This document shows positions 5,758 through 20,451 of a DNA stretch of 64,000 nucleotides, piece by piece (within the stretch, counting starts at the first letter, position 1; each line of letters opens with the position of its first letter). This DNA comes from an uncultured Flavobacteriaceae bacterium (GTDB lineage: Bacteria; Bacteroidota; Bacteroidia; Flavobacteriales; Flavobacteriaceae). The stretch spans positions 49,082 through 113,081 of the forward strand of contig CAZKAP010000003.1 in the NCBI GenBank assembly GCA_964550895.1. The letters run 5' to 3'. The position numbers and the translations under genes are program-made. A model generated the notes under the pieces. It ran no database searches and was not told where the DNA came from. It saw nothing but the letters and a program-made list of their open reading frames with translations.

Positions 5758-7155
5758 TTAATCCAGTACTATGGGAAGTCCGAAATAGAATTCGAGGATT
5801 TTAAGGCGGAAAATATAATCGTATTTGGTGCGAATGGCCGTGGCTTCCGCATTGTCGAGCCGTGCCTGGGCCTGGCCGTAATCGAAGGCATTCAGCAATC
5901 CATTTTCGTAGCGCTGGCGGGCATATTCCAAAGCCACGCGTCGGGCCTCTACAGTCTTCAACGCCGCATCGTACGCCAGGTAGAAGGTTTCCACATCCAC
6001 ATAGGCCTGATTGATGGCATTCTCCAGATCGAGTTTGGTTTGTTCGAGTTGCAATTTGCTCTGCAGCACGCCAAGCTTGGCCCGCTTTACATTATTCCGG
6101 GCCGAATTTCCATTGAACAGGGGAATATTCATTTGAAACCCATAGGATATCCCATCGTTGTTCTCCAACTGCGCAACAAAATCCGGTCGAAACACCACGA
6201 AATCGTCTGCCGGATTATTGGGATCCTGATCCGGGTTGGGTGCGATCTGAAAGGCATCGGTCGCAAAGGTATTGTAATTGAAAAAGGCACTCAGTGTGGG
6301 ATAGTAGGAACCCCGGGCTATCGCCAAATCCTTCTCGGCCACTTCTACGTTGGTCTCGGCGAACTTGATATCGTTCCGAAACGACAGGGCCTTCTCGAAG
6401 ATCACCTTGGGGGTATTCTTCAGGATTTCGGAAGCTGGAACGTTGTAGGTATCTTCCGCCAACTGGAAGTTTTCGTAATCCGTAATCTGCAGGAGCTGGG
6501 CGAGGTTAATCCGGGATATAATCACCAGACTCTCCGTATTGGTAATCTGCTGCAACTGAGTGGCGGCAGTGGCCTGCACCTCAAGCAAGTCGCCCTCAGG
6601 GGCGGCTCCTTCGGCTACCAGGTTCCTTACCCGTTCCAGGTCGTTCTTGGTAACCTCGTACTGCGCCCGGGCCACGTTAAGAGCCTCCTTGTTAGAGATG
6701 ACCTGCAGATACGCATTGGCCACATTCAGTCGGATATCGTCCTTCAGGTCTTCCAACCGGTAGCGGCTCGCAATCGTATTGAGCTTGGCGCGCGAGGCCC
6801 TGTTGAAGTTACGGAGTCCGTCGAATAGGGTATATCCGACATTCAGGTTGGCCGAACCGGATAGAATCTCACCCACGGTATTGGTCTGGGTCTGCGGATC
6901 CAGGATCAGACCCCGGCTTTCCCGAGCCGAAATGGAACCGTTCAGGTTGGGCAAGAAGTTACCCAGGGCGTCGGACTTGGCGATGGCCGCATTCTCCAGG
7001 TCGAGTTCGAACTGCTCCACAGTCAGGTTATTATCGATAGCGTACATCACGCACTCCTCCAGGGTCCATTTCTTCTGGGCATGCAAACCGGATCCCAGGA
7101 GAACCGCAAGCAAAAGGGTAAAGGCGTATTTATGGTATGATTTTATTATGATCAT
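5758..7155 (-). CDS. TolC family outer membrane efflux protein
   Basis: 465 aa. Signal peptide and two-repeat helical TolC-like sequence. It is the last gene of the ABC/adaptor operon. Confidence 0.85.
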   Translation of the reverse strand: MIIIKSYHKYAFTLLLAVLLGSGLHAQKKWTLEECVMYAIDNNLTVEQFELDLENAAIAKSDALGNFLPNLNGSISARESRGLILDPQTQTNTVGEILSGSANLNVGYTLFDGLRNFNRASRAKLNTIASRYRLEDLKDDIRLNVANAYLQVISNKEALNVARAQYEVTKNDLERVRNLVAEGAAPEGDLLEVQATAATQLQQITNTESLVIISRINLAQLLQITDYENFQLAEDTYNVPASEILKNTPKVIFEKALSFRNDIKFAETNVEVAEKDLAIARGSYYPTLSAFFNYNTFATDAFQIAPNPDQDPNNPADDFVVFRPDFVAQLENNDGISYGFQMNIPLFNGNSARNNVKRAKLGVLQSKLQLEQTKLDLENAINQAYVDVETFYLAYDAALKTVEARRVALEYARQRYENGLLNAFDYGQAQARLDNAEATAIRTKYDYIFRLKILEFYFGLPIVLD

Positions 7156-7167
7156 CAGTTGTGGTCT

Positions 7168-8307
7168 TTATTCGTTGTTTTCCGCATCTTCCTCTTCCTC
7201 ATCGCCCTTCTTGATAGGTTGGGTCTTGTTCCATTCCTTGACCTTGTCTTCCTCGGTCAGGCCCGAAATGATCTCTACATTAATGCCATCGGACAGCCCA
7301 ATTTCAATATCGCGACGTTCGAATTTCCCCTCTTCGTTAAGGACTTCGACATAGGGCTCATTCGTGGATCGATCGAACTGTAGCAGGGCCTCCTGTATCA
7401 CCAGGACGCTGTCTCTGCTTTCCAACACGAAGGAGGCATTGGCACTGTAGCCGGCACGAATCTGGAATTCCTCATCCAGAGACACTTCGCCTTCGATCTT
7501 AAACTGAACGGCCCCCCCTTCATCCGTACCCTTGGGAGCAACGAATCGAAGAGTGGCCTCGTACTCCTTATCTTCAATGGCCCCCATGGTAATAGTCAGG
7601 GGCATACCGACCTTAAGCTTGCCCACCTCGCCCTCGTCTACCTGGCCTTCAAATATCATTTTACTCAGGTCGGCCAATATGGCCACGGTGGTACCGGCGT
7701 TGAAGTTATTACTCTGTATCACCTGATCCCCTATTTTCACCGGAATCTCGAGTATGGTTCCCGACACCAGGGCACGAATATTGGTATTGGCCTCGGTGAT
7801 TCCGCCGGCAGTTCCCCTGCGGATGATCTGGTAATCGGCCTTGGCATTCTTGAGCTCCTGCTCCGCACGATCATAAGTCAGCTGCAGGTTCAGGTAGTCC
7901 TGGCTCGAGATCACGCCTTTATCGTAAAGCGCCTTGCTGCGATCGTACTCGATCTTGGCATTGTTCCGGGCGAGTTCAGCGTTCCGCACCCTGCCCTGGG
8001 CCTGATTCAGAGCCTGCTCGTTAGGTACCACCTTGATAATGGCGATCAGGTCTCCACTCTTGACTTTGTCCCCCTCTTTCTTGAGGATTTTATCGACGAT
8101 ACCGGTGATCTGGGGTTTGATCTCCACCTCGTCTTCGGGTACTACACTGCCGGTAGCGACCGTTTTCTTCTCTATACTGGAGATAAATGGGGAGTAGGTC
8201 TCGTATTGAACGGACCCTTTGCTGTTTGAACTGATAAAGAACGAAGCAGCGGCAAGACCTCCTACCACCAGGACGACTATCGCGAATATTATCAGAAACT
8301 TCTTCAT
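7168..8307 (-). CDS. efflux transporter periplasmic adaptor subunit (HlyD/MacA-like)
   Basis: 379 aa. N-terminal TM anchor, lipoyl-like segment (VKSGDLIAIIKV) and a coiled-coil hairpin. Paralog of 18086-19177. Confidence 0.85.
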   Translation of the reverse strand: MKKFLIIFAIVVLVVGGLAAASFFISSNSKGSVQYETYSPFISSIEKKTVATGSVVPEDEVEIKPQITGIVDKILKKEGDKVKSGDLIAIIKVVPNEQALNQAQGRVRNAELARNNAKIEYDRSKALYDKGVISSQDYLNLQLTYDRAEQELKNAKADYQIIRRGTAGGITEANTNIRALVSGTILEIPVKIGDQVIQSNNFNAGTTVAILADLSKMIFEGQVDEGEVGKLKVGMPLTITMGAIEDKEYEATLRFVAPKGTDEGGAVQFKIEGEVSLDEEFQIRAGYSANASFVLESRDSVLVIQEALLQFDRSTNEPYVEVLNEEGKFERRDIEIGLSDGINVEIISGLTEEDKVKEWNKTQPIKKGDEEEEDAENNE

Positions 8308-8343
8308 TAGACTGGGTATTTGTTGTTGTTATGCAATCTGTTT

Positions 8344-9609
8344 TTATTCTTCTCGTAATGCCTCTATAGGCCGGATTCTCAGTGCCCTCTGCGCAGGTAT
8401 TAGTCCGATAAGGGTACTGAATACGACCATGATCACCAGGGCCACTATCACAAAGGGAATAGGAACCGTCGGATTTGTATAGGGGAAATCCGTCAGGTCC
8501 TTTGTGGCCCTATCGACCAGCCAAAGCACCAGCGCCCCAAACGAAATGCCGTATATACCCGAAATCAGGGTCAGCACCGTACTCTCGAGTATGATCAGTG
8601 TTCGAACCTCGACGGGTTTGGCCCCCAGGGCCCGTCGCACACCGAGTTCCTTGGTACGCTCCCGGACGGAAATCAGCAGTATGTTCCCGATGGAGATCAC
8701 TCCGGCCAATATGGTGGCAACCCCAATGATCAGGGAGAGCAGCGTCATGCCCGAGGAAAAATTCTTGATGTTGTTAAATATCGCGCCCAGGTTTACGGAG
8801 GAAATCGCCACCTCGTCCGTCGGATCGATGTCCTTCTCGAATTTCAGGACCGCCTTGATGTCTTTCTCGACCTGGACCACGTCCGAGCTGTCGTAAGCCG
8901 CAATCAGCATCCAGTTTACCCGATCCCCGGTATTGTATAACTTCCGGTACGTATTGAACGGGATGTAGATGTCCGTATCGGCGGAAAACGGACTGGATTG
9001 AATAAATTTCTGGACACCGATCACCTGGAAACTCACCCCGTCGATCTCGATAAATTCGCCCACGGCCTTCTCCCCTTTTTCGAAGAGCTCGGCCTTGGCG
9101 CGTTCGCCAATCACACAGACCTTACGCTCGTACTTCATGTCATCGTCATTGATGTAGCGACCGCCCTCATAAATGTCGCGGGTGGCGATTTTCAGAGACA
9201 CAGGGGATTCCCCGTAAACGGCATAGCTTCCCTGTTGCAAGCCGCGCTTGATCACACCACCGGGGCTTCCGAATATCCCTTTGGCATTGGATGGGGCAAT
9301 GAATTCGATATCCGGCACCCGCTTTTTGAGCAGGCTCAGGTCCTCGATCCGGATGGGAACAAAGCGGCCCTTCTTAAAACCCGCGTAGGGTTTGCTGGTG
9401 CGCTGTGCCCAGACGAACATCGTATTGATCGCCGTGCGTTCAAATGCCCGGTCGAATCCATTGTCCAGACCCTTGGCTGCACCGGACATGGTGATGTACA
9501 CAAAGATTCCCCAGAAAACACCGAACATCGTCAACAGGGTGCGCACCCAGTTGCTTCCGATGGAATTGAAGATTTCCTGCCAGGTATTTAAGCTAAAGAG
9601 TAGTTTCAT
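8344..9609 (-). CDS. ABC transporter permease (MacB/FtsX-type)
   Basis: 421 aa. N-terminal TM, large periplasmic domain and C-terminal FtsX bundle (RERTKELGVRRALGA). Paralog of 19198-20451. Confidence 0.85.
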   Translation of the reverse strand: MKLLFSLNTWQEIFNSIGSNWVRTLLTMFGVFWGIFVYITMSGAAKGLDNGFDRAFERTAINTMFVWAQRTSKPYAGFKKGRFVPIRIEDLSLLKKRVPDIEFIAPSNAKGIFGSPGGVIKRGLQQGSYAVYGESPVSLKIATRDIYEGGRYINDDDMKYERKVCVIGERAKAELFEKGEKAVGEFIEIDGVSFQVIGVQKFIQSSPFSADTDIYIPFNTYRKLYNTGDRVNWMLIAAYDSSDVVQVEKDIKAVLKFEKDIDPTDEVAISSVNLGAIFNNIKNFSSGMTLLSLIIGVATILAGVISIGNILLISVRERTKELGVRRALGAKPVEVRTLIILESTVLTLISGIYGISFGALVLWLVDRATKDLTDFPYTNPTVPIPFVIVALVIMVVFSTLIGLIPAQRALRIRPIEALREE

Positions 9610-10839
9610 TTATTCGCTTCTCATGGCCTCAACGGGCTGGATTCGGGCTGCCCTGCGAGCGGGGATCATCCCCGCCAGGATTCCGCAGACGATTAACAAT
9701 ACCGTGGCCGATATGGCAAACCGCCCACTCACGTAAGGATCTTCGATGAAGTAGTCACTCAGTACATCCCCCATATTCTCCAGGATAAGTACGCCTATAC
9801 CCATGCCTATAAAACCGAAGATGATGGTAATTACCGAGGCCTCCAGTAGGATGATTCCAATGATGTCCCTGGGACGGGCCCCTACCGCCTTGCGGATACC
9901 GATCTCACGGGTACGCTCCTTGACCACGAACACCATGATGTTTCCGATAGCCACAATTCCGGCGATGATCGTTCCTATAGCGAAGGAGAGTGCGATCATC
10001 CCCAGGGCCCCTGCAAACTGCTGATTGCGCTCATAGTCACTGGCGATATTGCGTACGAAAATGGCCCGTGTATCGTCGGGGTTTATAAACTTCTTGTCCC
10101 TCAGGAAATTCAGGACATTATTCTGGAAAGCGGTGGCTATCTGAGCGCTGATGCCGGGCTTGAACAAGATGATCAGGAAATCGACTTTATCGGTACTCTT
10201 CTCGATTCGCTGGACTGTCTTGTACGGTACGTAAATGATGCGTTCGGCATTATCCCCGTCGTCGTCCTGAAAGACCCCAACCACCTGAAAAGCGATTCCG
10301 CCTATATCCAGGTAGGTCCCGATAGGGTCCTCATCCCCGTACAGGTCCTTGACCACCATACGCCCGATCACGCATACCTTAGTCCGGTCCTTAAGATCCT
10401 TGTCGTTGATGAAGCGCCCCTTCATCATTATGGTCTGTTCTACTATGCGGTGGGAAGGAGCTACGCCCTGGGTGGTATAGTTGTTGGATTCCTGCTTGTA
10501 GCGCACCAAATTCCCCCGTGAAATCCTGGGGGAAACGGCCGAAAGGAAATTGGCGAAGTTCTCCTGTATATCGGCTATATCGGAATTCTCGAACTCGATA
10601 CGCCGATTGGATTCGTATCCCTTGAACGGTATGGAAGTACGTCCGGGAAAGAAGTAGATTACGTTGGTGGGGTTATTTCCGAAGAACTTGTCGAAGGTAT
10701 TCTTCAGGCCGTTGGTCAGGCCGACCAGGATAACGACGATAAAAATACCCAGGGCCATGGTAAAGCCCGTGAGGAACGTCCGGAGCTTGTTCTTCCGGAG
10801 CGTAGAGTAGATTTCTTTCCAGGCCTCCAGACTAAACAT
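9610..10839 (-). CDS. ABC transporter permease (MacB/FtsX-type)
   Basis: 409 aa. Same architecture (KERTREIGIRKAVGA) and abuts the next permease with no gap. Paralog of 20460-21704. Confidence 0.85.
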   Translation of the reverse strand: MFSLEAWKEIYSTLRKNKLRTFLTGFTMALGIFIVVILVGLTNGLKNTFDKFFGNNPTNVIYFFPGRTSIPFKGYESNRRIEFENSDIADIQENFANFLSAVSPRISRGNLVRYKQESNNYTTQGVAPSHRIVEQTIMMKGRFINDKDLKDRTKVCVIGRMVVKDLYGDEDPIGTYLDIGGIAFQVVGVFQDDDGDNAERIIYVPYKTVQRIEKSTDKVDFLIILFKPGISAQIATAFQNNVLNFLRDKKFINPDDTRAIFVRNIASDYERNQQFAGALGMIALSFAIGTIIAGIVAIGNIMVFVVKERTREIGIRKAVGARPRDIIGIILLEASVITIIFGFIGMGIGVLILENMGDVLSDYFIEDPYVSGRFAISATVLLIVCGILAGMIPARRAARIQPVEAMRSE

Positions 10840-11533
10840 GCGGTGTAACTCTTACCTGTTCGACCTTCTCGTCCTTTACAATCACCCCATCTTTGAGGTA
10901 AACGATTCGCTTACACATGTGGGCGATATCGTCCTCATGTGTGACGACCAGTATGGTGTTTCCCTCATCGTTGATCTTCTGGATCAGGGCCATAACCTCA
11001 TGGGATGTAGTGCTGTCCAGGGCCCCTGTGGGCTCATCGGCCAGTAGTACCTTAGGCTCAGATGCCATGGCACGGGCGATGGCCACGCGCTGCTTCTGTC
11101 CACCGGAAAGCTCGCCGGGAAGGTGCTTGGCCCATTCCCTAAGGCCCACCCTTTCCAGGTATCCCATCGCCTTGCGGTTGCGCTCCTTACGCGCCATCCC
11201 CTGATAATAGAGGGGCAATGCCACGTTCTCCAGCGCAGATTTATAATTGATCAGATTAAACGACTGGAAAACGAAGCCCAGAAACTTGTTGCGATACTCC
11301 GCCGCTTTGGTCTCGTCCAGATTTTTGATGGGAACTCCATCCAACTCGTAGATCCCGGAATCGGCGCTATCCAGTATGCCGATGATGTTTAACAGGGTCG
11401 ACTTTCCCGATCCGGAGGATCCCATAATGGCCACAAGTTCGCCCGATTCCACCGTAAAGTCGATACCCTTGAGAACATGCAGGGAATTCGAGCCCATTTG
11501 GTAGGATTTGTGCAGGTCTTTGATTGTAATCAT
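10832..11533 (-). CDS. ABC transporter ATP-binding protein (MacB/LolD-type)
   Basis: 233 aa. Walker A GSSGSGKST, signature LSGGQKQR, Walker B LLADEPTGALD. Overlaps the downstream permease by 8 nt. Confidence 0.9.
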   Translation of the reverse strand: MITIKDLHKSYQMGSNSLHVLKGIDFTVESGELVAIMGSSGSGKSTLLNIIGILDSADSGIYELDGVPIKNLDETKAAEYRNKFLGFVFQSFNLINYKSALENVALPLYYQGMARKERNRKAMGYLERVGLREWAKHLPGELSGGQKQRVAIARAMASEPKVLLADEPTGALDSTTSHEVMALIQKINDEGNTILVVTHEDDIAHMCKRIVYLKDGVIVKDEKVEQVRVTPHV

Positions 11534-11709
11534 CTGGCGCTTTATTTTGTTAAGGGGAACGTCCTTCCCATAAGACTCTCGAGCTACCGAGGTGTTACCT
11601 GAATTATCTTAATATTTTGTTAACACACACTAAAATTCAGGCTTCGACGGACGAACGGCTTATTTCTACCGACCAACTGCATATGCCCCTCCGATGTTCC
11701 GTTTCTTGT

Positions 11710-12186
11710 TTAACGGTTCTCGAGCGTACAGAGTACAAAGTTACCCGTCCATCTTCGAATACGTGTGTAATTTGAGTTAAATCGAAGTCGGCCTACTGCA
11801 GGATCCATAAGCCAACATCCGTTCCTTTCCGCTTCGTACCGGACCGCATAGTGTAGCGAATTCGATGGTCCGCCCAGGATCAGGATAACGGGCATAGTTA
11901 GACAAAGTCCCTCTAGTCCAGCTTGGACCGCCCGGGGGTCAACCCACATACTCCGGGTCTGCACGCCCCATTTCTCCAAAGCAGCTTCCAAATCGATGAG
12001 ACGGGTTCCCCCGGCTCCTGTACGGCAGGAGTTATACACCTCATCGTAGCCCACCTGTATACCGAAAAACCTGAAAACCGAAACCGCACAGGCGGGTCCG
12101 CAATCGGCGCGGGCCCTTTGTCGGACTTCCACGCCGAGACGGCGAAGATCATGAGGCCTTTGGAAATTGCCACCCCATCGAAACAA
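11710..12186 (-). CDS. stand-alone peptidase C39-like (double-glycine leader / bacteriocin-processing) cysteine protease domain
   Basis: 158 aa with a TTG start; there is no in-frame ATG before residue 80. C39 signature Q23-x5-C29 (VRQRARADCGPACAVSV), H112 (SLHYAVRY) and D128-P (LMDPAVG). No ABC transporter part is attached. Confidence 0.7.
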   Translation of the reverse strand: MFRWGGNFQRPHDLRRLGVEVRQRARADCGPACAVSVFRFFGIQVGYDEVYNSCRTGAGGTRLIDLEAALEKWGVQTRSMWVDPRAVQAGLEGLCLTMPVILILGGPSNSLHYAVRYEAERNGCWLMDPAVGRLRFNSNYTRIRRWTGNFVLCTLENR

Positions 12187-12200
12187 TTGAAACCTGTTTT

Positions 12201-12428
12201 CTATTTACCGTATAAAACGAAAAAGGAAGAAACCCTGCGGTAGAACATGTATTCGAGTACCCAGCGATAAAAGGGACGGGCTATGCGGTATCGGACGGTA
12301 TTGGAATCGATCAATCGGAAGAGATAAACGCTGACATAGCGATCCCTGAGCATTTTTCGGATTGAACGGTCCTGATACGCGGGAAGATAGGACTGTTCGA
12401 AGTCATAAAAAACTGAACCTAAACGCAT
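12201..12428 (-). CDS. hypothetical protein (possible gene remnant)
   Basis: 75 aa with an ATG start. Tyr/Arg/Phe-rich with no recognisable domain. Ends 15 nt upstream of the C39 gene. Confidence 0.25.
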   Translation of the reverse strand: MRLGSVFYDFEQSYLPAYQDRSIRKMLRDRYVSVYLFRLIDSNTVRYRIARPFYRWVLEYMFYRRVSSFFVLYGK

Positions 12429-12953
12429 TAATCGTAATTCTGCTTCATCCGCAACAGATCAAAGATATAACTCTTTAAACAAAACAAGTCTGAATACTCG
12501 ACGGGAGGCTAAGAAGTTATCCACCAAAGGAACCCATCTCCGGTGTATGCTTTTGTCTCGGTTCCGAGGGCAGCGGGTTAAGCAAAAGATTGGCCAGCAT
12601 AGCGCCGGCCAATCCCCATCAGTCATGATCACAGTCTATATGATAGAGCTTCCTGCCGTAATTGAAGCTCTTCACATACAGTTCAAGTATGGCTACGGTC
12701 CAGTTCGGACGGATAAATCCAGCGCGGATATCCATCCTTTCTTCCATGGAAAGCACTCGCATATGAACCCGGCTAGTGGTCACTTACTGATGATTCATAA
12801 ATGAACCCGGTCATGGTCCCTATAAGCACGGCATCTATGGCCAGCATGACCACCAATGGAATAACCGGCAATGGTCTCAGTTCGGATTGGGCAGTTGATA
12901 CAATCAATAGTCTACGGATTTATTCTTTTCCTACTCTTTTCAGGATTTTCGGC

Positions 12954-14192
12954 TTACTCCTTGGTCGAAGCGCTTCGGGATCCCGGGAAGCCAACGACTC
13001 TTCTAAAGTAATGTCCCGGACTGTAGATTTCATTCGCCCGCATCAGATACCTAATCAGGACGATGGACAAAAGGGCGAACGGGTACAGTCGGGGTAAAAG
13101 CGAAGCGATCGTATTCTCTGTATCGCCCGGATGAATCGCTGCCTGCAGCAGTAGAGTCATCACGCCGGAGTCATAACTTTGATATACAGCGTATAACAAT
13201 CCAACAAGAAATAATGAAACCGCCAGGTAATGCAGTAAACCGAGTAGCGCAAGTAGCCGTGAATTCCCTGGATGCAGCCATATACGAGGGTTTTTAAGCC
13301 TCCTCGCCAATTCGACCCTCGCCCGTTCATTCAGCCGGTCTACTCCGGTCAGATCCGTGAGTACCCAATAGCCATCTCCCCTGACTAATGGGTTCAGGTT
13401 CCAGAGCGACCGGAGCAGGATAAGGACCGCCGCCAATTTCCCGGAACCGAAGCCCCATAACTCCGAGGCTGTAAGGAGTGCCGCGCAAAAGGCCCATTCG
13501 AAATAAATCCCCGCCAGGTTAACGTGTACCCTCTTCCGCGGACTCAAACGCCAGGCATCCGTCACATCGGAAAACATCACCGGGAACACCAGATACAACC
13601 CGCCGCCTATAATACCGGGACGCCCACCGTAGTACAGGAGGGCCGAGGCATGTCCGAATTCGTGCAACAATACCGAGCAGGCCGTGATAAGGAGTTCTGC
13701 CGGCCAATTGAGTTCTTCCGGGTCGAGCTGAACCGGATGGGACATCCAAAGACTGACAGTCAGCCATAGCACGACCATCAGCACTGCCGGCCATGCATGC
13801 AGGAAGCTGAACAGCCGGCTCGCAGCCGCCACCCGCTGCCTATCCAGAAGGGTAAACCCCCAAAGGAGATAAGGTGGAATAGTCCCCTCGGGAGCCGGAG
13901 GCGGTTCGTCTAAGAAGAGCCCCTTGTTTCGGAAGCGGGAATCGTAAATACGAAGGACATCTTCCTCTTCAAGACGAGTGCCCAGCTCGGCATTCAGCGC
14001 CGGAGCGACCTGGTGAAGGGACCTGTTCGACCGGAGGAGTCTCAGGAAAAGATAGCCTGACAGGTTCGTTTTCAAATATGTGGATGCTCCTTCTTTCCAG
14101 ACCAGCCACTTTCCCGGTCCCACGGGCTTGAACCGTACGGCAGGGTCGAGCTGTAGCTTCGGTACCGATGCCTGTTTATCCGTATAAGGCAT
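12954..14192 (-). CDS. PqqD/RRE-like domain fused to M50 (site-2-protease-like) membrane zinc metalloprotease
   Basis: 412 aa. Residues ~11-96 follow the PqqD/RRE pattern (PKLQLDPAVRFKPV..KWLVWKEGASTYLKTNLSGYLFLRLL..RSLHQVAPALNAELG..EEDVLRIYDSRFRNKGLF). The multi-TM body carries HEFGH (13650-13664) and NLNPLVRGDG (13371-13400), i.e. HExxH plus NxxPxxxxDG. The ATG overlaps the upstream gene by 17 nt. Confidence 0.7.
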   Translation of the reverse strand: MPYTDKQASVPKLQLDPAVRFKPVGPGKWLVWKEGASTYLKTNLSGYLFLRLLRSNRSLHQVAPALNAELGTRLEEEDVLRIYDSRFRNKGLFLDEPPPAPEGTIPPYLLWGFTLLDRQRVAAASRLFSFLHAWPAVLMVVLWLTVSLWMSHPVQLDPEELNWPAELLITACSVLLHEFGHASALLYYGGRPGIIGGGLYLVFPVMFSDVTDAWRLSPRKRVHVNLAGIYFEWAFCAALLTASELWGFGSGKLAAVLILLRSLWNLNPLVRGDGYWVLTDLTGVDRLNERARVELARRLKNPRIWLHPGNSRLLALLGLLHYLAVSLFLVGLLYAVYQSYDSGVMTLLLQAAIHPGDTENTIASLLPRLYPFALLSIVLIRYLMRANEIYSPGHYFRRVVGFPGSRSASTKE

Positions 14193-16050
14193 CCAGCGCG
14201 TAAATCGTTGAAACGGCTCGGCTCCGAAAGGCCTGTCCGGGCCTGGGGGTTACAAATGGGACGGATTCCCAGGAACCATCCTCGCTTTGAGTTCGAAGCA
14301 GGAAATCCCTGGCATCCCGATAAAACGGATGATGCCCATAGCCAATATCCCGCATACAAAGGGACACAAGAGCCGTTGAGAGCGGGTCAGATTCGGCCCC
14401 GGGCTGCAATCCGAAGCCTCCATCCGGATTCCGGCCTTGGTTCAGGAATTCATCCCATCGCTGTAGGCAATCTCCTTTGAATTCCCCGAGTCTGTAGAGG
14501 TACCGGCCTACCTTGTAGGTTCCGTAGGGCCAGCCCACGTACCACCGGCTGGCCCAGGCCCCCGAGGGCAGTTGTGCATTCTTCAGATAGGCCAAGGATG
14601 CAGACCGGAGGGGCTCCAGCAATAGCGGGCGGTAATCCAGCAGGACATCGTACATATTGGCCACTACCTCGGGGTCCGGACCCATACCCCAGAGGCGGCT
14701 GTTCAATTCCCGCTGCCACTGGGAATTCCTTTGATCAGCACCACCCGTGATCCAGGTCAACATTACCCCTTTACTGTCCAGACCGCAGGATGCATGACGG
14801 CTCAATATTTCGTAGCAGTACCGGTCGATCAGATCGCGCCGGCCCATTCGAAGAAAAAAACGAATGACCTGCGACAAGTCGTCTATATCCGCTGAGAGGT
14901 TAGGCAGACTGGGAAAGTAGGACCACAGGCCGACGGCATGGTCTCGCCGCTGTCTCAGGTAATAGTCCACTTCCCGTTCCAGGTAGTTTCGCATATCGGC
15001 GGATGGGTTTTCCTGTCGGGCCAGGAAATCATCGGCCAGCAAGCGGTAAAAGAGGTCTGAACTATGTATACCCGAAACCCCCCGAAATCCTTCTCCTTCG
15101 GATACGTACATAAAGTGCCTGAGACCCGGCCAATTCCTCTTGCGCTCCTCGTTCAGGAATCCAAGGCCCCGCTGCCTGTGCAGGTCATGGTCAGGACTAA
15201 GTCGACCCGGTTTATCTGCCCCATCGGAAAGGGATACCCTCAATCGGCTGTGGGCCATTTGGACATATCCCAGGGCCTGCTTGTCGTAAAAACGCAATTC
15301 CCTAAGTACCTGTGCAACTGCCCCGCGCCACTGGCCATCACCTGGAATCAGTTGCAGTGCCTGTTCAAGTTGCCCGAACGCCCGCTCGAAAATCCAATGG
15401 GCGTGCCCCTTCAAATACATCGATTTCCTCGCAGCCTCCATCTCCTTTCGGGTCTCGGGCCAGCCGTGTTTGAGCGACCAGGTATACCATACCCAGTTGA
15501 ACCGTCTGGCCGTGAAATCCTCTTCGACATCGACCAGGTCGTCATAGAGCTGCAGGGCCACGGAGAAGCTGGAATGCGATTTCAGTAAGCTCAGGTATAT
15601 CGGCCTCACCGTCTCCCGGTCCTCTGTAAGCAGGAAGAGTCCGTCCAGGGCCAGTTTAGCCAACGCTGATTTGGCCTCGGCCAGTTTGCTGAAATCGTCG
15701 AATCCCAGTTGTTTACCCCCGGCAAATGACCTTTCCGTCCTGACGGCCCATGCCATTTCGGCCTCCCTGGAGGACCACTTTGCCCAGAAGGGGCTTTCCG
15801 GGCTGAAGAGGCCATTCAGTATCGACACGGACTGACGATATGCCCCTAGCAAGGGCAGTAGGGCATCCGGATCAGCCTCATCGACCAGCCGGTCCCATTG
15901 AAGTGCAGCCTGAAAGCACTCCCTGCCGGACGCATCGAGCCGGTTTACTAACGGTCTTTCCACCTGGGGAAAAAAGTCCCTGAACAGGCTCGCGTAGTTT
16001 TGGTAATACGCGTATAATCTATTCCTCAATGGATCTGCCGGATGTGCCAT
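14176..16050 (-). CDS. terpene-synthase-like fusion protein: class I isoprenoid-synthase-like N-domain + class II cyclase / prenyltransferase-repeat C-domain
   Basis: 624 aa. The N-terminal part has DRLVDEAD (15871-15894) and ALQLYDDLVDVEED (DDLVDVEED = 15517-15543), about 117 aa apart. The C-terminal part has SADIDDLSQV (DIDD = 14878-14889) and QW-type repeats AYLKNAQLPSGAW (14554-14592), NQGRNPDGGFG and RDFLLRTQSEDGSW (14269-14310). Confidence 0.65.
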   Translation of the reverse strand: MAHPADPLRNRLYAYYQNYASLFRDFFPQVERPLVNRLDASGRECFQAALQWDRLVDEADPDALLPLLGAYRQSVSILNGLFSPESPFWAKWSSREAEMAWAVRTERSFAGGKQLGFDDFSKLAEAKSALAKLALDGLFLLTEDRETVRPIYLSLLKSHSSFSVALQLYDDLVDVEEDFTARRFNWVWYTWSLKHGWPETRKEMEAARKSMYLKGHAHWIFERAFGQLEQALQLIPGDGQWRGAVAQVLRELRFYDKQALGYVQMAHSRLRVSLSDGADKPGRLSPDHDLHRQRGLGFLNEERKRNWPGLRHFMYVSEGEGFRGVSGIHSSDLFYRLLADDFLARQENPSADMRNYLEREVDYYLRQRRDHAVGLWSYFPSLPNLSADIDDLSQVIRFFLRMGRRDLIDRYCYEILSRHASCGLDSKGVMLTWITGGADQRNSQWQRELNSRLWGMGPDPEVVANMYDVLLDYRPLLLEPLRSASLAYLKNAQLPSGAWASRWYVGWPYGTYKVGRYLYRLGEFKGDCLQRWDEFLNQGRNPDGGFGLQPGAESDPLSTALVSLCMRDIGYGHHPFYRDARDFLLRTQSEDGSWESVPFVTPRPGQAFRSRAVSTIYALDALYG

Positions 16051-17152
16051 ATATGCCTGGTTTTGGATGATCCCCTATAAGAGCCCGACCCGGATTTTCC
16101 TTTCCCAGTTGGCGATGCCAGGGCACATTGGGGTCGAGTCCCGATTTCGAATACGACAGCCCGGTGTCGTTCCCGTGATTAAACAATTCAATCTCCATCC
16201 TGTACTTAAGGAAAGAACCGGAATCGTACACCTCGCCTTCCTCAATAAATCTTACCCGTCTCAGGCTGAACCATGGATCCTTGTAGTCGATCCAGAGCTC
16301 GGTGCACTGTCGACGGAGCCTTCGGCCATGTTGTCCTCCTCCCTTTTCGATATGGGATTCGGGCAGGTACTCATAGAATATGCGGTATGCTCCATCATTT
16401 TCCTCGGGATAGAGTAGTGATCCCGATATATACGAACGCTTGCTGTCCTCGTGGCGCACGCGGAATTCGCAGGTACGATGGCTTCCCGGGCCGGACCGCT
16501 CATGCCAGGACCAAATCCAGCCCGGCCGGAACAGGAAGCCCACGGTGGTATTCAGATAAAACAGTCTGGCAATGTCCCGGTTCGGAACGAACCCCCTGTC
16601 CCAGGGACTCGTCTGAGGCGAGTATTTCAGATAGTCCAGATTGTATCCGTAGATGCTGAATTGCCTGTGCCATTTTCGCCCAGGAGCAAACCGGGTTCGC
16701 AGTCGGCTCACGGCGAACTGGGCCTGAAGCTGACGTTTAGGCATTCCATCGACCCGGAATGCTTCCCGGTAGGTCAGTAGCTGTGGTCGGGATACCCGTT
16801 TGGCACGAATCAGCCGCTGGTAAATGCTTCTGGGATGGGTGGCCACCAGGTTGACTTCGTTCAATTCCAATCGCTTGGGCCACAGATAGACCGTATCCGT
16901 CTGATTGCGCTTCATGCGGTATGCGTCTATGGATTCGAAGCCGATATGGGAAATACGGAGCCGGGGATTAGGATCGGGTATCCGGCATTGGCCCTCCTTA
17001 TCTGAAAATCGTATCCTGCCGGTTTCCCTCTCGGTGATTGCCACATTCTCCAAAGGCCGCATGCGTTCTGCATCCATGACGATCAGGCCGTATCCCTGGG
17101 TCCAAGCCGTCGAAGGCAGCAAGACCATAAGCAAAACTCGTATCCATTTCAT
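16019..17152 (-). CDS. secreted carboxypeptidase-regulatory-like (CarboxypepD_reg) domain protein, function unknown
   Basis: Start moved to ATG 17152 (MKWIRVLLMVLLPSTAWTQ signal peptide). A CarboxypepD_reg-like segment follows (GLIVMDAERMRPLENVAI...DKEGQCRI...LRISHIGFES); the rest is unassigned. Overlaps the downstream gene by 32 nt. Confidence 0.55.
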   Translation of the reverse strand: MKWIRVLLMVLLPSTAWTQGYGLIVMDAERMRPLENVAITERETGRIRFSDKEGQCRIPDPNPRLRISHIGFESIDAYRMKRNQTDTVYLWPKRLELNEVNLVATHPRSIYQRLIRAKRVSRPQLLTYREAFRVDGMPKRQLQAQFAVSRLRTRFAPGRKWHRQFSIYGYNLDYLKYSPQTSPWDRGFVPNRDIARLFYLNTTVGFLFRPGWIWSWHERSGPGSHRTCEFRVRHEDSKRSYISGSLLYPEENDGAYRIFYEYLPESHIEKGGGQHGRRLRRQCTELWIDYKDPWFSLRRVRFIEEGEVYDSGSFLKYRMEIELFNHGNDTGLSYSKSGLDPNVPWHRQLGKENPGRALIGDHPKPGIYGTSGRSIEE

Positions 17153-17186
17153 AGAAAAAGAGTGGCCCGTTCCGGGCCACCCGCAA

Positions 17187-17336
17187 TTAAAATCGAACTT
17201 TGGCGGTGAGTTCGAGGTCACCGTTAGACGGTTCGTACTGAACACCTACGTCTCCGCCGCGGATCCAGCCCATCTCGAATCGCTGTTCGAGTTCCACCAC
17301 ATCAAAGAGGTCCATCAATTCATCGGATTCATGCAT
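17187..17336 (-). CDS. candidate precursor peptide with double-glycine (GG) leader, 49 aa
   Basis: Not in the ORF track because it is under 60 aa. Runs from ATG 17336 to TAA 17187-17189: MHESDELMDLFDVVELEQRFEMGWIRGG|DVGVQYEPSNGDLELTAKVRF. The leader end EMxxIRGG matches the double-glycine consensus at positions -1, -2, -4, -7, -8 and -15. It lies 34 nt upstream of the next gene on the same strand. Confidence 0.5.
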   Translation of the reverse strand: MHESDELMDLFDVVELEQRFEMGWIRGGDVGVQYEPSNGDLELTAKVRF

Positions 17337-17353
17337 CTGCTTACGTTTTTAGG

Positions 17354-17461
17354 TTAATTAGGAATTTTGGGTAGGATGGGAATGGACGGTATGCATCCCT
17401 GCCATTCGACTTCCTGAGGCTCTGTATCCCAGGGCCAGAGCTTTCTGATTTGCTTGAACAT
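17354..17461 (-). CDS. possible 35-aa Trp/Pro-rich small ORF (very uncertain)
   Basis: Runs from ATG 17461 to TAA 17354-17356: MFKQIRKLWPWDTEPQEVEWQGCIPSIPILPKIPN. Starts about 20 nt downstream of a TAGATTTG box and stops 17 nt before the GG-peptide ATG. There is no homology evidence. Confidence 0.15.
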   Translation of the reverse strand: MFKQIRKLWPWDTEPQEVEWQGCIPSIPILPKIPN

Positions 17462-17480
17462 AATAAGGCTTTGTTTTGGG

Positions 17481-17488
17481 CAAATCTA
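17481..17488 (-). promoter_or_regulatory. candidate Bacteroidetes sigma-A -7 promoter element (TAnnTTTG)
   Basis: The minus strand reads TAGATTTG, an exact match to TAnnTTTG, within the 175-nt gap between the wHTH gene and the peptide ORFs. I found no clear -33 TTG. Confidence 0.3.
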
Positions 17489-17511
17489 TCTGGAGCCGGT
17501 GCAGTTTCCTT

Positions 17512-17784
17512 TCATCCGCCATAGAGCTCCGTCGTCTCGTCTTCATTGACGATCATCACACTGATCCGCACCTTCAGGTTGAAGTATTCCTTGTAGAAGT
17601 AGGTCTTACGGGATCGGTCGTATCCGATTCGCGCCTTGAAATCCTTCAACTGTTCGATCAGGTGGTACACCAGCCGTTCACTGATGCGCAGCCTCCCTGC
17701 GAGCTCTGTGGGACTGCCTGTACTTTCGGTTTCGATGGCCTTGTGAATAAACTGAAGCCGTTCGAGATTCCTGATGTTATTCAT
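17512..17784 (-). CDS. small winged-helix-turn-helix protein (putative transcriptional regulator)
   Basis: 90 aa. HTH pattern STGSPTELAGRLRISERLVYHLIEQLKD followed by a wing-like IGYDRSRKTYFY, resembling DeoR/HTH_11 N-terminal domains. Confidence 0.6.
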   Translation of the reverse strand: MNNIRNLERLQFIHKAIETESTGSPTELAGRLRISERLVYHLIEQLKDFKARIGYDRSRKTYFYKEYFNLKVRISVMIVNEDETTELYGG

Positions 17785-18085: not shown

Positions 18086-19177
18086 CTATTTTACATTCCA
18101 GACCTTAATGCGGTCGGATTCACTCAGTCCATCCCGGATTTCGACATAGAGTCCGTCACTGACACCCAGGACCACATCACGGCGCTCGAAGTTCTTTTCG
18201 CCCGTTGCCACCTCCACGAAAGGACGATTGGTCTCCTTGTCGAATTGCAGCAGCCCTTCCTTGATGGCCAGGACACTATCGGCCTGCTCGAGTATAATGG
18301 AGGCATTCGCACTGAGTCCTGCCCGAATAAATACGGAATCCGCCTTCCTGAGCGTGCCCTTGATCTCGAACTGAATGGCCCCGTTCTCCTCGACTCCCTT
18401 GGGCGCAATATAGTCCAGTACGGCATCGAAAACCTGGTTTTTGAGGGCACCAACTGTAATTTCCAATGGCAGATTCTCGGTAACATTCCCTACTTCGGCC
18501 TCGTCGATCTTGCCTTCGAATATCATGCGGTTGATGTCCGCTATAGCCGCGATCGTAGTGCCTTCGTTGAAGTTGTTGGCCTCGATCACCTGGTTCCCCA
18601 CTTCCACGGGTACATCCAGAACCATGCCGCTTACGGTAGCCGTGATCCGTGTATTTGCCGCCTTACCCAACTCCCTGGTGGAACCCGTCCGGACGATGTC
18701 GTATCGCTTACTGGCGGCACTAAACGCCAGGTTGGCCTGATCGTAATTCACCTGGGCCACATCCATATCGGCCTGCGAGATCACCCCCCGTTCGAACAGG
18801 GACTTCTGGCGGTCGTAGTTGCGCTTCTGGTCTGCCCTTCGAATTCGAGCCTCTTCCACCGCATTCCTCGCATCATTGAGTTGCTGCAAATTGGGCACGA
18901 CTTTGATGCGCGCGATGAGGTCTCCCGACTTGACGTAATCGCCACCTTCGACAAATACGGCTTGAATAACGCCGGATATATTGGGCTTGATCAGCACCTC
19001 CTCCTTGGGTATGATCTTGCCTGTGGCTACGGTCTTTCGCACGATGTCACGGCGCTCAGGAGATTCGGTAGTGTAGCTGACGGGATCCTCCTGATTCTTA
19101 GTGTACAGGTAGTACATGGATGCGCCGAATCCGATGACGATCAGGCTGAGAACTGCAATGGTGATCCATTTTTTCAT
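18086..19177 (-). CDS. efflux transporter periplasmic adaptor subunit (HlyD/MacA-like), paralog
   Basis: 363 aa. Aligns along its full length with 7168-8307 (for example SGDLIARIKVVPN... versus SGDLIAIIKVVPN...). Confidence 0.85.
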   Translation of the reverse strand: MKKWITIAVLSLIVIGFGASMYYLYTKNQEDPVSYTTESPERRDIVRKTVATGKIIPKEEVLIKPNISGVIQAVFVEGGDYVKSGDLIARIKVVPNLQQLNDARNAVEEARIRRADQKRNYDRQKSLFERGVISQADMDVAQVNYDQANLAFSAASKRYDIVRTGSTRELGKAANTRITATVSGMVLDVPVEVGNQVIEANNFNEGTTIAAIADINRMIFEGKIDEAEVGNVTENLPLEITVGALKNQVFDAVLDYIAPKGVEENGAIQFEIKGTLRKADSVFIRAGLSANASIILEQADSVLAIKEGLLQFDKETNRPFVEVATGEKNFERRDVVLGVSDGLYVEIRDGLSESDRIKVWNVK

Positions 19178-19197
19178 GACGGTGTTTTAATCAACTG

Positions 19198-20451
19198 CTA
19201 TTCGGTTCGTATGGCTTCTATTGGGCGTACCCGCAGGGCACTCCGGGCGGGAATAAATCCGGCGAGCAGACCGGAGCCCACCAGGAAAAACAGGGCAAGG
19301 GCCACATAGCCGATCTGGACGCTCGGATTGAAAAACATATCGACGGGGCCGACCTGTTCCAGGGCGTAATTGATTCCGTAAATGGTCAGGGCGCCGAAGC
19401 CCACCCCCATCATCCCGCTCAGTACGGTAATCACGGCGGACTCCGCCAGAATCTGATACCGAATCGAGGAGGCCTTCTCCCCTAGGGCCCTTCGAATTCC
19501 GATCTCCCGTGTGCGTTCCTTCACGATGATGAGCATGATGTTGCTTACCCCGATTATACCGGAGAGCAAGACCATGAGGCCAACGACTATGGCGACCAGG
19601 TCCAGCACATCGAAAAGGGACTGCACCTTACCGAATTCCTCGAATATATCGTTGTTGCCAATCGCCCGGTTATCGGTGGGGCTTACCCGGTGATTCCGCT
19701 TCAGCACATCTATGATCTGACCCTTCAGGGCGGTGATGGGAAACTCGTCTTCCGCCGTGATCGCCATCCATCCGACCCGGTCTCCCTGATTAAAGACCTG
19801 GTTGAATGAGGTGAACGGCACATATATGGACTTCTGGTCTTCGGTATCGTCGGCACTCTCGTTCGCCTTCTTGTAGGTTCCGACTACCTGGAAGTTCACG
19901 CCCTGTATCTTGATGTAGGTGCCCAGTACCTCTTCGTCCGATTTATAGAGTTCACGGACTACACCCGGACCGATCACGGCAATCTTACGCCGTTTTTCTA
20001 TGTCCCATGCGTTGATAAACCGACCCAGAGTGATGTCCATGGGTTCCTGGTTCATGATATCCGGAAAATCGGCGAAGATCACATAACTCCCACTCTCCAC
20101 GCCGCGAATAACATTAGGTTCACTGCTGCGCTGTTGGTTGCGGCCGGAAATATACTTCAGGTGAGGGACCTGATCCCGTATGGCCTCCAGGTCACCAACC
20201 CGGTAGCGGATCGGCCGGCCTTTGGGCAATCCATCATAGGCCTCGGTAGTGCTCCGTCCCCAAATGAATACCGTATTGGTGGCTATGTTCCCGAAGTCGA
20301 GGCGAACGCCTTTCTCCAGGCCGTCGTTTACCGCCAGCAGGAGGATGAAGATGTAGATCCCCCAGCCGACGCCGAAGGCCGTCAGTAGCGTCCGGCTCGG
20401 CTTGGCGGCGAGCACCTCCAGTATTTCCCTCCATCGGTCAGCTGAAAACAT
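19198..20451 (-). CDS. ABC transporter permease (MacB/FtsX-type), paralog
   Basis: 417 aa. FtsX C-terminal bundle (KERTREIGIRRALGE). Paralog of 8344-9609. Confidence 0.85.
   Translation of the reverse strand: MFSADRWREILEVLAAKPSRTLLTAFGVGWGIYIFILLLAVNDGLEKGVRLDFGNIATNTVFIWGRSTTEAYDGLPKGRPIRYRVGDLEAIRDQVPHLKYISGRNQQRSSEPNVIRGVESGSYVIFADFPDIMNQEPMDITLGRFINAWDIEKRRKIAVIGPGVVRELYKSDEEVLGTYIKIQGVNFQVVGTYKKANESADDTEDQKSIYVPFTSFNQVFNQGDRVGWMAITAEDEFPITALKGQIIDVLKRNHRVSPTDNRAIGNNDIFEEFGKVQSLFDVLDLVAIVVGLMVLLSGIIGVSNIMLIIVKERTREIGIRRALGEKASSIRYQILAESAVITVLSGMMGVGFGALTIYGINYALEQVGPVDMFFNPSVQIGYVALALFFLVGSGLLAGFIPARSALRVRPIEAIRTE

Follow-up and report, generated by a model that had tools for sequence, protein, structure and literature searches.

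Ribosomal peptides carrying a cyclised isoprenoid were reported only recently (Hubrich et al., Chem 2024), and the available part of PMC13290415 discusses 2 fused prenyltransferase-cyclase (PC) maturases, ChrPC and NctPC, both of which act on a tryptophan of a ribosomal peptide. [quoted passage not shown] The characterised trans-IDS-like peptide prenyltransferases all act on Trp, and the Trp-specific enzymes share a Gln residue just upstream of the second aspartate-rich motif (SARM) (PMC13290415). In another account, "steromaze" is grouped with cyanobactins and ComX as hybrids of terpenes and RiPPs, peptides that are made by the ribosome and then modified post-translationally (PMC13647313). 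Here, we analyse a 64,000-nt stretch of DNA from an uncultured Flavobacteriaceae bacterium (hereafter, the window), the minus strand of which holds a cluster of peptide-maturation genes with a 624-aa protein. This region is probably a ChrPC-type biosynthetic cluster for a ribosomal peptide bearing a cyclised isoprenoid on Trp; the folds, motifs, gene linkage, invariant precursor Trp and purifying selection described below are direct observations. Because the 624-aa protein displays every testable feature of the ChrPC type, the cluster can be placed within a described kind of system. The original prediction, drawn from the window alone, held that the gene combination matches no described RiPP class, a view contradicted by ChrPC and NctPC, published in 2024 (Hubrich et al., via PMC13290415 and PMC13647313).

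Domain architecture of the 624-aa protein

14176-16050, minus strand: the 624-aa putative PC maturase, a prenyltransferase-cyclase fusion (Pfam SQHop_cyclase_C, E 3.5e-10, above the cut-off)
15196-16050, minus strand: P domain, residues 1-285, a predicted trans-IDS-like peptide-Trp prenyltransferase (profile, fold, motifs)
14176-15183, minus strand: C domain, residues ~290-624, a predicted single-domain class II terpene cyclase (Pfam, fold, motifs)

The full-length AlphaFold (AF2) model, with a predicted local distance difference test (pLDDT) score of 87.9, comprises a helical domain (residues 1-274) and an alpha/alpha barrel (residues 290-624), the latter including the region covered by the SQHop_cyclase_C match (residues 462-600). 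A profile of the P domain matched polyprenyl and geranylgeranyl diphosphate (GGPP) synthases in the PDB with E-values of 1.3e-6 to 1e-4 (the best being 1.3e-6 and 6.3e-6), the regions of the first aspartate-rich motif (FARM) and of the SARM being aligned. Consistently, all of the top 50 Foldseek matches of a separate AF2 model of this domain (pLDDT 92.5) have the trans-IDS fold, with template modelling (TM) scores of 0.6-0.69, and include the Trp prenyltransferase Ord1. Alignment of 14 homologues, extended to 132 family representatives, revealed the Asp-rich motifs D53xxxD57 and Q167xxD170D171xxD174xxxD178, with each of the numbered residues kept in 118 to 129 of the 132 representatives. The first motif reads DxxxD, not DDxxD.

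The conserved blocks of the C domain are W376-S-Y-F-P and D388-I-D390-D391, accompanied by many aromatic residues, and many Trp and Tyr positions are invariant among the 132 representatives. The Asp-rich motifs and the DIDD motif noticed originally are thus present, and the latter is near-invariant (131 of the 132 representatives retain D388, 126 retain D390 and 106 retain D391). The best Foldseek matches of the full model are the single-domain myxobacterial "squalene-hopene cyclases" 8paj and 8pak (TM 0.64-0.75, normalised by target length), followed by the class II cyclase MstE (TM 0.62-0.67, same normalisation), then by drimenyl diphosphate synthase and squalene-hopene cyclase (SHC) and, more weakly, by the beta subunit of protein farnesyltransferase. 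The placement of the protein in an isoprenoid family, as first proposed, is therefore upheld for both halves, the N-terminal one being trans-IDS-like by profile and fold and the C-terminal one resembling MstE-like class II cyclases. By analogy, the P domain is most likely a trans-IDS-like prenyltransferase acting on a peptide Trp, and the C domain most likely an MstE-like class II cyclase that cyclises the prenyl chain.

We also considered the C-terminal barrel as a peptide binder of the LanC-like or protein-prenyltransferase-beta-like kind. This assignment was rejected, given that class II cyclases are matched at E 1e-11 versus 1e-4 for farnesyltransferase beta, and that DxDD is conserved.

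Precursor peptides and the invariant tryptophan

17187-17336, minus strand: 49-aa putative precursor, MHESDELMDLFDVVELEQRFEM-GW-IRGG-DVGVQYEPSNGDLELTAKVRF (open reading frame [ORF]; leader hidden Markov model [HMM]; codon changes versus the related locus L001)

In the window precursor, the leader motif reads VELEQRFEM, the only Trp is residue 24 and a double glycine (GG) occupies residues 27-28. The leader HMM retrieved 87 candidate precursors from 48 of 80 sources, often in tandem and up to 6 per set, with the family leader consensus (F/L)xVEELExR(Y/F/L)E(M/L) followed by a variable tail. Trp is found in 75/75 distinct cores, compared to 19 expected from the local Trp frequency; 66 cores have exactly 1 Trp, and in 63 of the 75 the first Trp lies at position 2 or 3 after the motif. 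The 75 cores are related to one another and hence not independent, but the Trp pattern is plain nonetheless. Whereas Trp is invariant throughout the family, GG is found in only 8 of the 42 loci counted. Neither the precursor nor the other small ORFs of the cluster are matched by a Pfam or NCBIfam model.

In double-glycine leaders, which are cut by C39 peptidases, GG (or GA/GS) follows an acidic residue (position −8) and 2 hydrophobic ones (−7 and −4). The segment E-M-G-W-I-R-G-G of the window precursor fits this pattern, but its GG is not conserved across the family. The proposal that the leader ends in EMGWIRGG would place the invariant Trp, the expected site of modification, inside the leader; with the Trp conserved family-wide and the GG not, this reading is unlikely.

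The precursor protein is identical to that of L001, the genes differing by 13 synonymous and 0 non-synonymous codon changes, and the PC gene, 72% identical to its L001 counterpart, shows 192 synonymous and 176 non-synonymous codon changes. Judged from the changes in the precursor gene, and from those in sORF A and the 75-aa gene given below, the cluster is under purifying selection. Within the sub-lineage of the window, the C-terminal part of the precursor is strongly conserved and ends in …AKV(K/R)F.

The cores of the window and of L003, L010, L021, L027, L009 and L053 have an alternating end with a terminal aromatic residue (…AKVKF, …AKVRF, …GKIEF), which resembles the C-terminal signal of outer-membrane beta-barrel proteins, although this is a likeness only.

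Distribution of the family and gene neighbourhoods

A word-indexed protein search returned only 16 relatives, so that the family seemed rare; an exhaustive profile search corrected this to a large family, with 740 representatives at 50% identity (E≤1e-30). The top 150 representatives are nearly all full-length two-domain proteins, with few fragments. Scanning of 1 genome per species yielded 72 loci from at least 5 bacterial phyla. The hosts in Bacteroidota include Chryseobacterium, Epilithonimonas, Elizabethkingia, Capnocytophaga, Flavobacterium, Maribacter and Tenacibaculum, among others, and further PC loci belong to Balneolaceae, Chloroflexota, the cyanobacteria Nostoc and Cyanothece, Acidobacteriota and Gemmatimonadota.

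For comparison, 79 related loci were fetched (labelled L001, L003 and so on), and the window proteins were searched against their six-frame ORFs. A gene for an M50-like protease adjoins the PC gene in 71 of the 79 loci, peptides similar to the 49-mer are found in 25, the secreted protein described below in 14 and C39 in 8. The expected co-occurrence of homologues of the 624-aa protein with the M50-like protease and Trp-containing precursors thus extends over several phyla, but C39 shares in it only in the 8 loci. Clustering of the neighbouring genes revealed accessory functions, namely, radical S-adenosylmethionine (SAM)/SPASM proteins in 19 loci, with Cys-rich cores, isopentenyl diphosphate (IPP) isomerase in 5, glycosyltransferase in 5 and CPBP protease in 4.

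Several loci deserve mention in their own right. A gene for a type-1 IPP isomerase-like protein of ~167 aa (by eye) is located in or beside the cluster in L009, L011, L028, L037 and L042, which fits isoprenoid supply. In non-Bacteroidota loci, such as L046, L056, L058, L059 and L067 from Chloroflexota, a radical SAM/SPASM gene of ~520 aa joins the PC and M50-like pair, and the precursors of the radical SAM loci are Cys-rich, several having Trp at the extreme C terminus (…NVNGVLW, …NGSGW). In L004-L007, a 29%-identical PC and M50-like pair with a precursor resides on an apparent conjugative element (PRTRC, ThiF/E2-like, SSB and MobC proteins), and a TraB/PrgY/GumN-family protein replaces the secreted CarboxypepD_reg-like protein. 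L013 carries 6 precursors and 2 M50-like genes, L044 has 6 precursors in a row, and L019 and L031 each contain 2 complete tandem PC and M50-like pairs with different precursor types.

The M50-like membrane protease

12954-14192, minus strand: 412-aa predicted M50-type membrane metalloprotease (site-2 protease) that begins with a soluble domain (motifs, NCBIfam, linkage)

This protein contains the motifs HEFGH (residue 177) and NLNPLVRGDG (residue 265) as well as hydrophobic segments. Its NCBIfam matches are to daptide_HExxH, a family of intramembrane metalloproteases of daptide biosynthesis (E 2.6e-35), and to the YydH/LiaK metalloproteases of epipeptide maturation (E 1.6e-12), both below the cut-off. 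No Pfam family matched the window protein, PF02163 giving nothing at E≤1, and a phmmer search of PDB sequences with the M50-like protein had no match; Peptidase_M50 (PF02163) does match 10/10 homologues (E 1e-6 to 1e-3, 1 of them above the cut-off). The M50 assignment therefore holds at the level of the family, to which the window protein is clearly homologous, and the protein is the presumed leader peptidase.

It had been read as a fusion of a PqqD-like RiPP recognition element (RRE) to an M50 protease. The protease part, with its HExxH and NxxPxxxxDG motifs and M50 homologues, is upheld at the family level; for the RRE, the matches are weak. A profile of the N-terminal 105 residues matched PqqD (5sxy) at E 0.18, the N terminus of LynD at 0.37 and MusD at 0.66, its top matches being spurious (designed beta-trefoil repeats), and Pfam PqqD matches 4 of the 28 M50-like family members, the best at E 1e-3, the window protein not being among them. 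The N-terminal soluble domain may thus be an RRE.

Layout of the cluster, regulatory signals and export

17512-17784, minus strand: putative winged-helix-like regulator of 90 aa that opens the cluster (ORF; Pfam HTH_11, E 0.004)
17481-17488, minus strand: promoter-like box TAGATTTG, ~145 nt upstream of the precursor ATG (match to TAnnTTTG)
17160-17182, minus strand: G+C-rich hairpin and T-run directly 3' of the precursor stop (10-pair stem with 8 G-C pairs)
16019-17152, minus strand: secreted 377-aa protein with an N-terminal CarboxypepD_reg-like domain (CarbopepD_reg_2, E 3e-4; the real start is the ATG at 17152)
10832-11533, minus strand: ABC ATPase, MacB/LolD-like (Pfam/NCBIfam)
9610-10839, minus strand: FtsX permease (Pfam/NCBIfam)
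8344-9609, minus strand: FtsX permease (Pfam/NCBIfam)
7168-8307, minus strand: HlyD adaptor (Pfam/NCBIfam)
5758-7155, minus strand: TolC (Pfam/NCBIfam)

In the ORF list of the window, the co-directional string spans positions 5758-17784 and all large ORFs of the cluster are intact. The coordinates agree with those given originally and show that the 3 central genes do overlap, by 32 nt at 16019-16050 and by 17 nt at 14176-14192. The downstream order of ABC ATPase, 2 permeases, adaptor and TolC, for which the ORFs and family matches concur, is borne out as well. The winged-helix gene is likewise present, its Pfam match being weak, and homologues occupy the same flanking position in 9-11 related loci (phmmer E 1e-15 to 1e-56). 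Of the 2 small ORFs initially singled out here, the 49-aa peptide is discussed above, whereas the other, of 62 aa (17358-17546, minus strand), runs across the promoter box into the 3' end of the regulator gene and has no Pfam or NCBIfam match, its sole counterpart being that of the 72%-identical relative; since L003 has no counterpart, this ORF is probably not a gene.

The consensus of the Bacteroidota −7 promoter element is TAnnTTTG. A promoter box had been reported, and it is present in the window with its position kept in 2 relatives, as is that of an upstream GAAAGGAAACTGCA block (the box reads TAGATTTG in L001, TAGGTTTG in L003), but the pattern TANNTTTG is not more frequent in the window than expected by chance (29 found, 22.6 expected). 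A scan of the window for sigma-70 promoters was uninformative (2 found, 5.5 expected). The T-run of the hairpin extends as far as the next gene's start codon, and hairpin and T-run recur in the same position in L001 and also in L003, where the stem sequence differs; the hairpin is probably an attenuator that holds the precursor transcript above the enzyme transcript.

The secreted CarboxypepD_reg-like protein was correctly recognised: CarbopepD_reg_2 scores above the cut-off in 5 homologues, and the N terminus MKWIRVLLMVLLPSTAWTQG is signal-peptide-like by eye. The protein has no relative among PDB sequences (phmmer) or in NCBIfam. Neighbour clustering placed related secreted proteins between the precursor and the PC gene in 29+13+3 Bacteroidota loci. 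L001, L021 and L053 carry the same MacB-type set 3' of the cluster, and L003 and L012, the contigs of which end there, carry the beginning of it; the peptide presumably leaves the cell through this ABC/HlyD/TolC set.

A second, paralogous set of HlyD adaptor and FtsX permease genes is located directly upstream (18086-20451, minus strand, and beyond), so that the peptide cluster lies between 2 MacB-type sets, an arrangement shared with L001 and L003.

Small ORFs and the stand-alone C39 peptidase

12773-12907, minus strand: small ORF (sORF) A, 44 aa, hydrophobic, ending in …YESSVSDH (translated comparison; 1 hydrophobic segment)
12619-12783, minus strand: sORF B, 54 aa, …LSMEERMDIRAG/FIRPNWTVAILELYVKSFNYGRKLYHIDCDHD (translated comparison; no Pfam or NCBIfam family)
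12459-12632, minus strand: sORF C, 57 aa, weakly conserved and doubtful (~48% identity over 50 residues to its L001 counterpart)
12201-12428, minus strand: conserved 75-aa protein, the gene of which immediately precedes that of C39 (homologues: L001, 9e-43; L003, 3e-22)
11710-12186, minus strand: stand-alone C39 cysteine peptidase, 158 aa, with a TTG start (Pfam Peptidase_C39, E 1.9e-16)

The region between the M50-like and C39 genes (12187-12953) had been described as a degenerate spacer. Translated comparison instead revealed 4 tandem small ORFs, slightly overlapping and in successive frames, which are conserved at the protein level in L001, L003 and L027 and partly in L053. The L027 homologue of sORF A has a double-glycine leader (…KELKGG/ILPVLLV…, the slash marking the putative cleavage position), whereas sORF A of the window does not; relative to L001, this gene shows 17 synonymous and 7 non-synonymous changes. 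The homologues of sORF B read …EIRGG/FIRPNW… in L001, …RLKGG/YIRPNW… in L003 and …QAKGG/WLRPNW… in L027, the window site being RAG/F, and in comparison with L001 the core is nearly unchanged, the non-synonymous changes falling mostly in the leader part. No clear counterpart of sORF C was found outside L001. The 75-aa gene differs from that of L001 by 19 synonymous and 6 non-synonymous changes.

The C39 peptidase is, as originally noted, stand-alone with intact catalytic residues (DCG at residue 28, HYAV at 112 and DP at 128), scoring 60.5 bits against the PF03412 cut-off of 22, and no signal peptide was seen in it by eye. Since GG-leader small ORFs adjoin it in the relatives, the C39 gene has candidate substrates of its own, and it is most likely an add-on module that processes sORFs A and B. 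Possibly it also cuts the WIRGG site (GG28) of the main peptide: precursors with WxxGG are associated with C39 genes (4, 4, 2 and 32 loci in the 4 cells; Fisher p 0.008).

The core of sORF B retains a Trp (RPNW), and sORFs A and B look class-II-bacteriocin-like.

Proposed maturation and alternative explanations

The picture that the cluster suggests is as follows. The 49-aa precursor would be made in excess, with the hairpin after its stop attenuating read-through, and its conserved leader (…VELEQRFEM) would be recognised by the maturation enzymes. The trans-IDS-like domain, with its Asp-rich motifs and Mg2+, would ionise a C10-C20 prenyl diphosphate, and Trp24, the only Trp and located 2 residues past the leader motif, would be alkylated by the P domain. 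The MstE-like domain would then protonate the distal double bond through an Asp of D-I-D-D and fold the chain into rings, after which the M50-type membrane protease would take off the leader and the neighbouring MacB-type ABC/HlyD/TolC set would export the product. We infer this chemistry from ChrPC, as PMC13290415 summarises it, by homology; the prenyl donor length, both cleavage sites and the export route are likewise proposals. The idea of a prenylated, probably prenyl-cyclised, exported peptide made by an enzyme of the isoprenoid-synthase fold is thus supported by the folds and by the linkage to the protease and Trp-containing precursors.

Three points weigh against this reading. The HMM alignments to SHC and MstE reach only the QW-repeat part and not the DxDD region, so that the role of D390 as the catalytic Asp rests on motif and position. 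ChrPC was compared by description rather than by sequence, and the window protein is 28-31% identical to its Chryseobacterium homologues. The window sub-lineage combines a C39 gene with a canonical E-M-x-x-I-x-G-G site in which Trp occupies position −5, because of which the Trp-bearing segment could be split from the C-terminal 21-mer, an outcome that misfits a simple "leader, then modified core" order. The same site could also mean that the product is a double-glycine bacteriocin, the leader of which ends in EMGWIRGG and the 21-residue core of which, DVGVQYEPSNGDLELTAKVRF, is freed by C39, with the terpene enzyme acting on that core or elsewhere. Glu at −8, Met at −7, Ile at −4 and the GG all match the general consensus, an intact C39 is at hand, WxxGG and C39 are associated as given above, and the C-terminal part of the precursor is strongly conserved. 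Yet the 21-mer is devoid of Trp, the residue used by all characterised trans-IDS-like peptide prenyltransferases (PMC13290415); it is Trp that is invariant in the family, GG being restricted to 8/42 loci; most loci have the M50-like protease without a C39 gene; and the C39 gene adjoins its own GG-leader sORFs. Hence, we consider this explanation rather unlikely.

It is very improbable that the 624-aa protein is a bifunctional synthase of a free terpenoid flanked by an unrelated bacteriocin cluster. Both domains do belong to superfamilies of terpenoid enzymes, and homologues are labelled "squalene-hopene cyclase" in their sources, but the gene stays linked to the M50-like gene (71/79) and to precursors with Trp in several phyla, the overlaps between the genes measure 32 and 17 nt, the first Asp-rich motif has the form DxxxD and not DDxxD, and a characterised member acts on peptides (PMC13290415). 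Scarcely any weight can be given to the cluster being a decaying remnant without a product, as might be suspected from AG in place of GG in sORF B of the window, from sORF A lacking the GG leader seen in L027 and from the TTG start of C39; the large ORFs are intact, 3 genes have more synonymous than non-synonymous changes versus L001 (precursor, 13/0; sORF A, 17/7; 75-aa gene, 19/6), and the promoter box and hairpin are conserved.

Returning to the preferred reading, a ChrPC-type pathway that terpenylates Trp24, an extension restricted to the sub-lineage of the window is conceivable but improbable, namely, that the terpenylated precursor is split at GG by the dedicated C39 into a short terpenylated fragment and a separate peptide of 21 residues with the end …AKVRF, and that the same peptidase also processes the peptides of sORFs A and B. 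If so, the fragment, approximately GW*IRGG after M50 cleavage (the asterisk denoting the modified Trp), would serve either as a lipopeptide signal of the ComX kind or as a temporary anchor in the membrane that is taken off during export, and a single cluster would give rise to a terpenylated peptide as well as unmodified bacteriocin-like peptides. The window locus raises a testable question as to how a double-glycine/C39 module combines with Trp terpenylation. More generally, the fixed core of the family, consisting of the PC enzyme, the M50-like protease and an EELExRxE(M/L) leader followed by Trp, provides simple rules for cluster mining, and the conserved Q167, D170/D171 and D390 are concrete targets for mutation.

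Comparison with known systems

Like ChrPC, the window protein combines in 1 chain an N-terminal trans-IDS-like domain and a C-terminal MstE-like cyclase, and it is predicted to act on an internal Trp of a ribosomal peptide. Several Chryseobacterium genomes (L018, L026, L029, L030, L044 and L061) encode full-length homologues flanked by the same genes, and "Chr" presumably stands for this genus. With NctPC, the maturase associated with steromaze in the work of Hubrich et al., it shares the fusion of a prenyltransferase acting on the Trp of a ribosomal peptide to an MstE-like C domain, but the P domain of the window protein is all-helical and trans-IDS-like. Trans-IDS-like Trp prenylation, with Gln before the second Asp-rich motif, is also common to ComQ/ComX of Bacillus, PalQ and Ord1, the last being among the fold matches; these enzymes, however, have no fused cyclase, ring closure in ComX uses the indole and not the prenyl chain, and Ord1 acts on free Trp. 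The single alpha/alpha-barrel fold of class II cyclases is shared with MstE and 8paj/8pak, which by contrast are stand-alone, MstE cyclising a prenylated dihydroxybenzoate rather than a peptide (entry titles).

Among the processing enzymes, the 412-aa protein resembles the MpaP-type proteases of daptides (NF041824), YydH/LiaK (NF058609) and M50 in being a polytopic membrane protein with HExxH and NxxPxxxxDG encoded beside a RiPP maturase, but it falls below both NCBIfam cut-offs and belongs to a distinct subfamily that has a soluble N-terminal domain of its own. The C39 peptidase, with its Cys, His and Asp and the GG-leader small peptides adjoining it in relatives, recalls the processing of class II bacteriocins; unlike in that case, it is stand-alone rather than fused to an ABC exporter, and the exporter is of the MacB type. 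Relative to ChrPC, the sub-lineage of the window adds the WxxGG site after Trp, the C39 peptidase, the GG-leader sORFs, the 75-aa protein and a conserved adjoining MacB/TolC exporter. The class of system is itself not new, and the cluster adds a further member to the ChrPC-type family.

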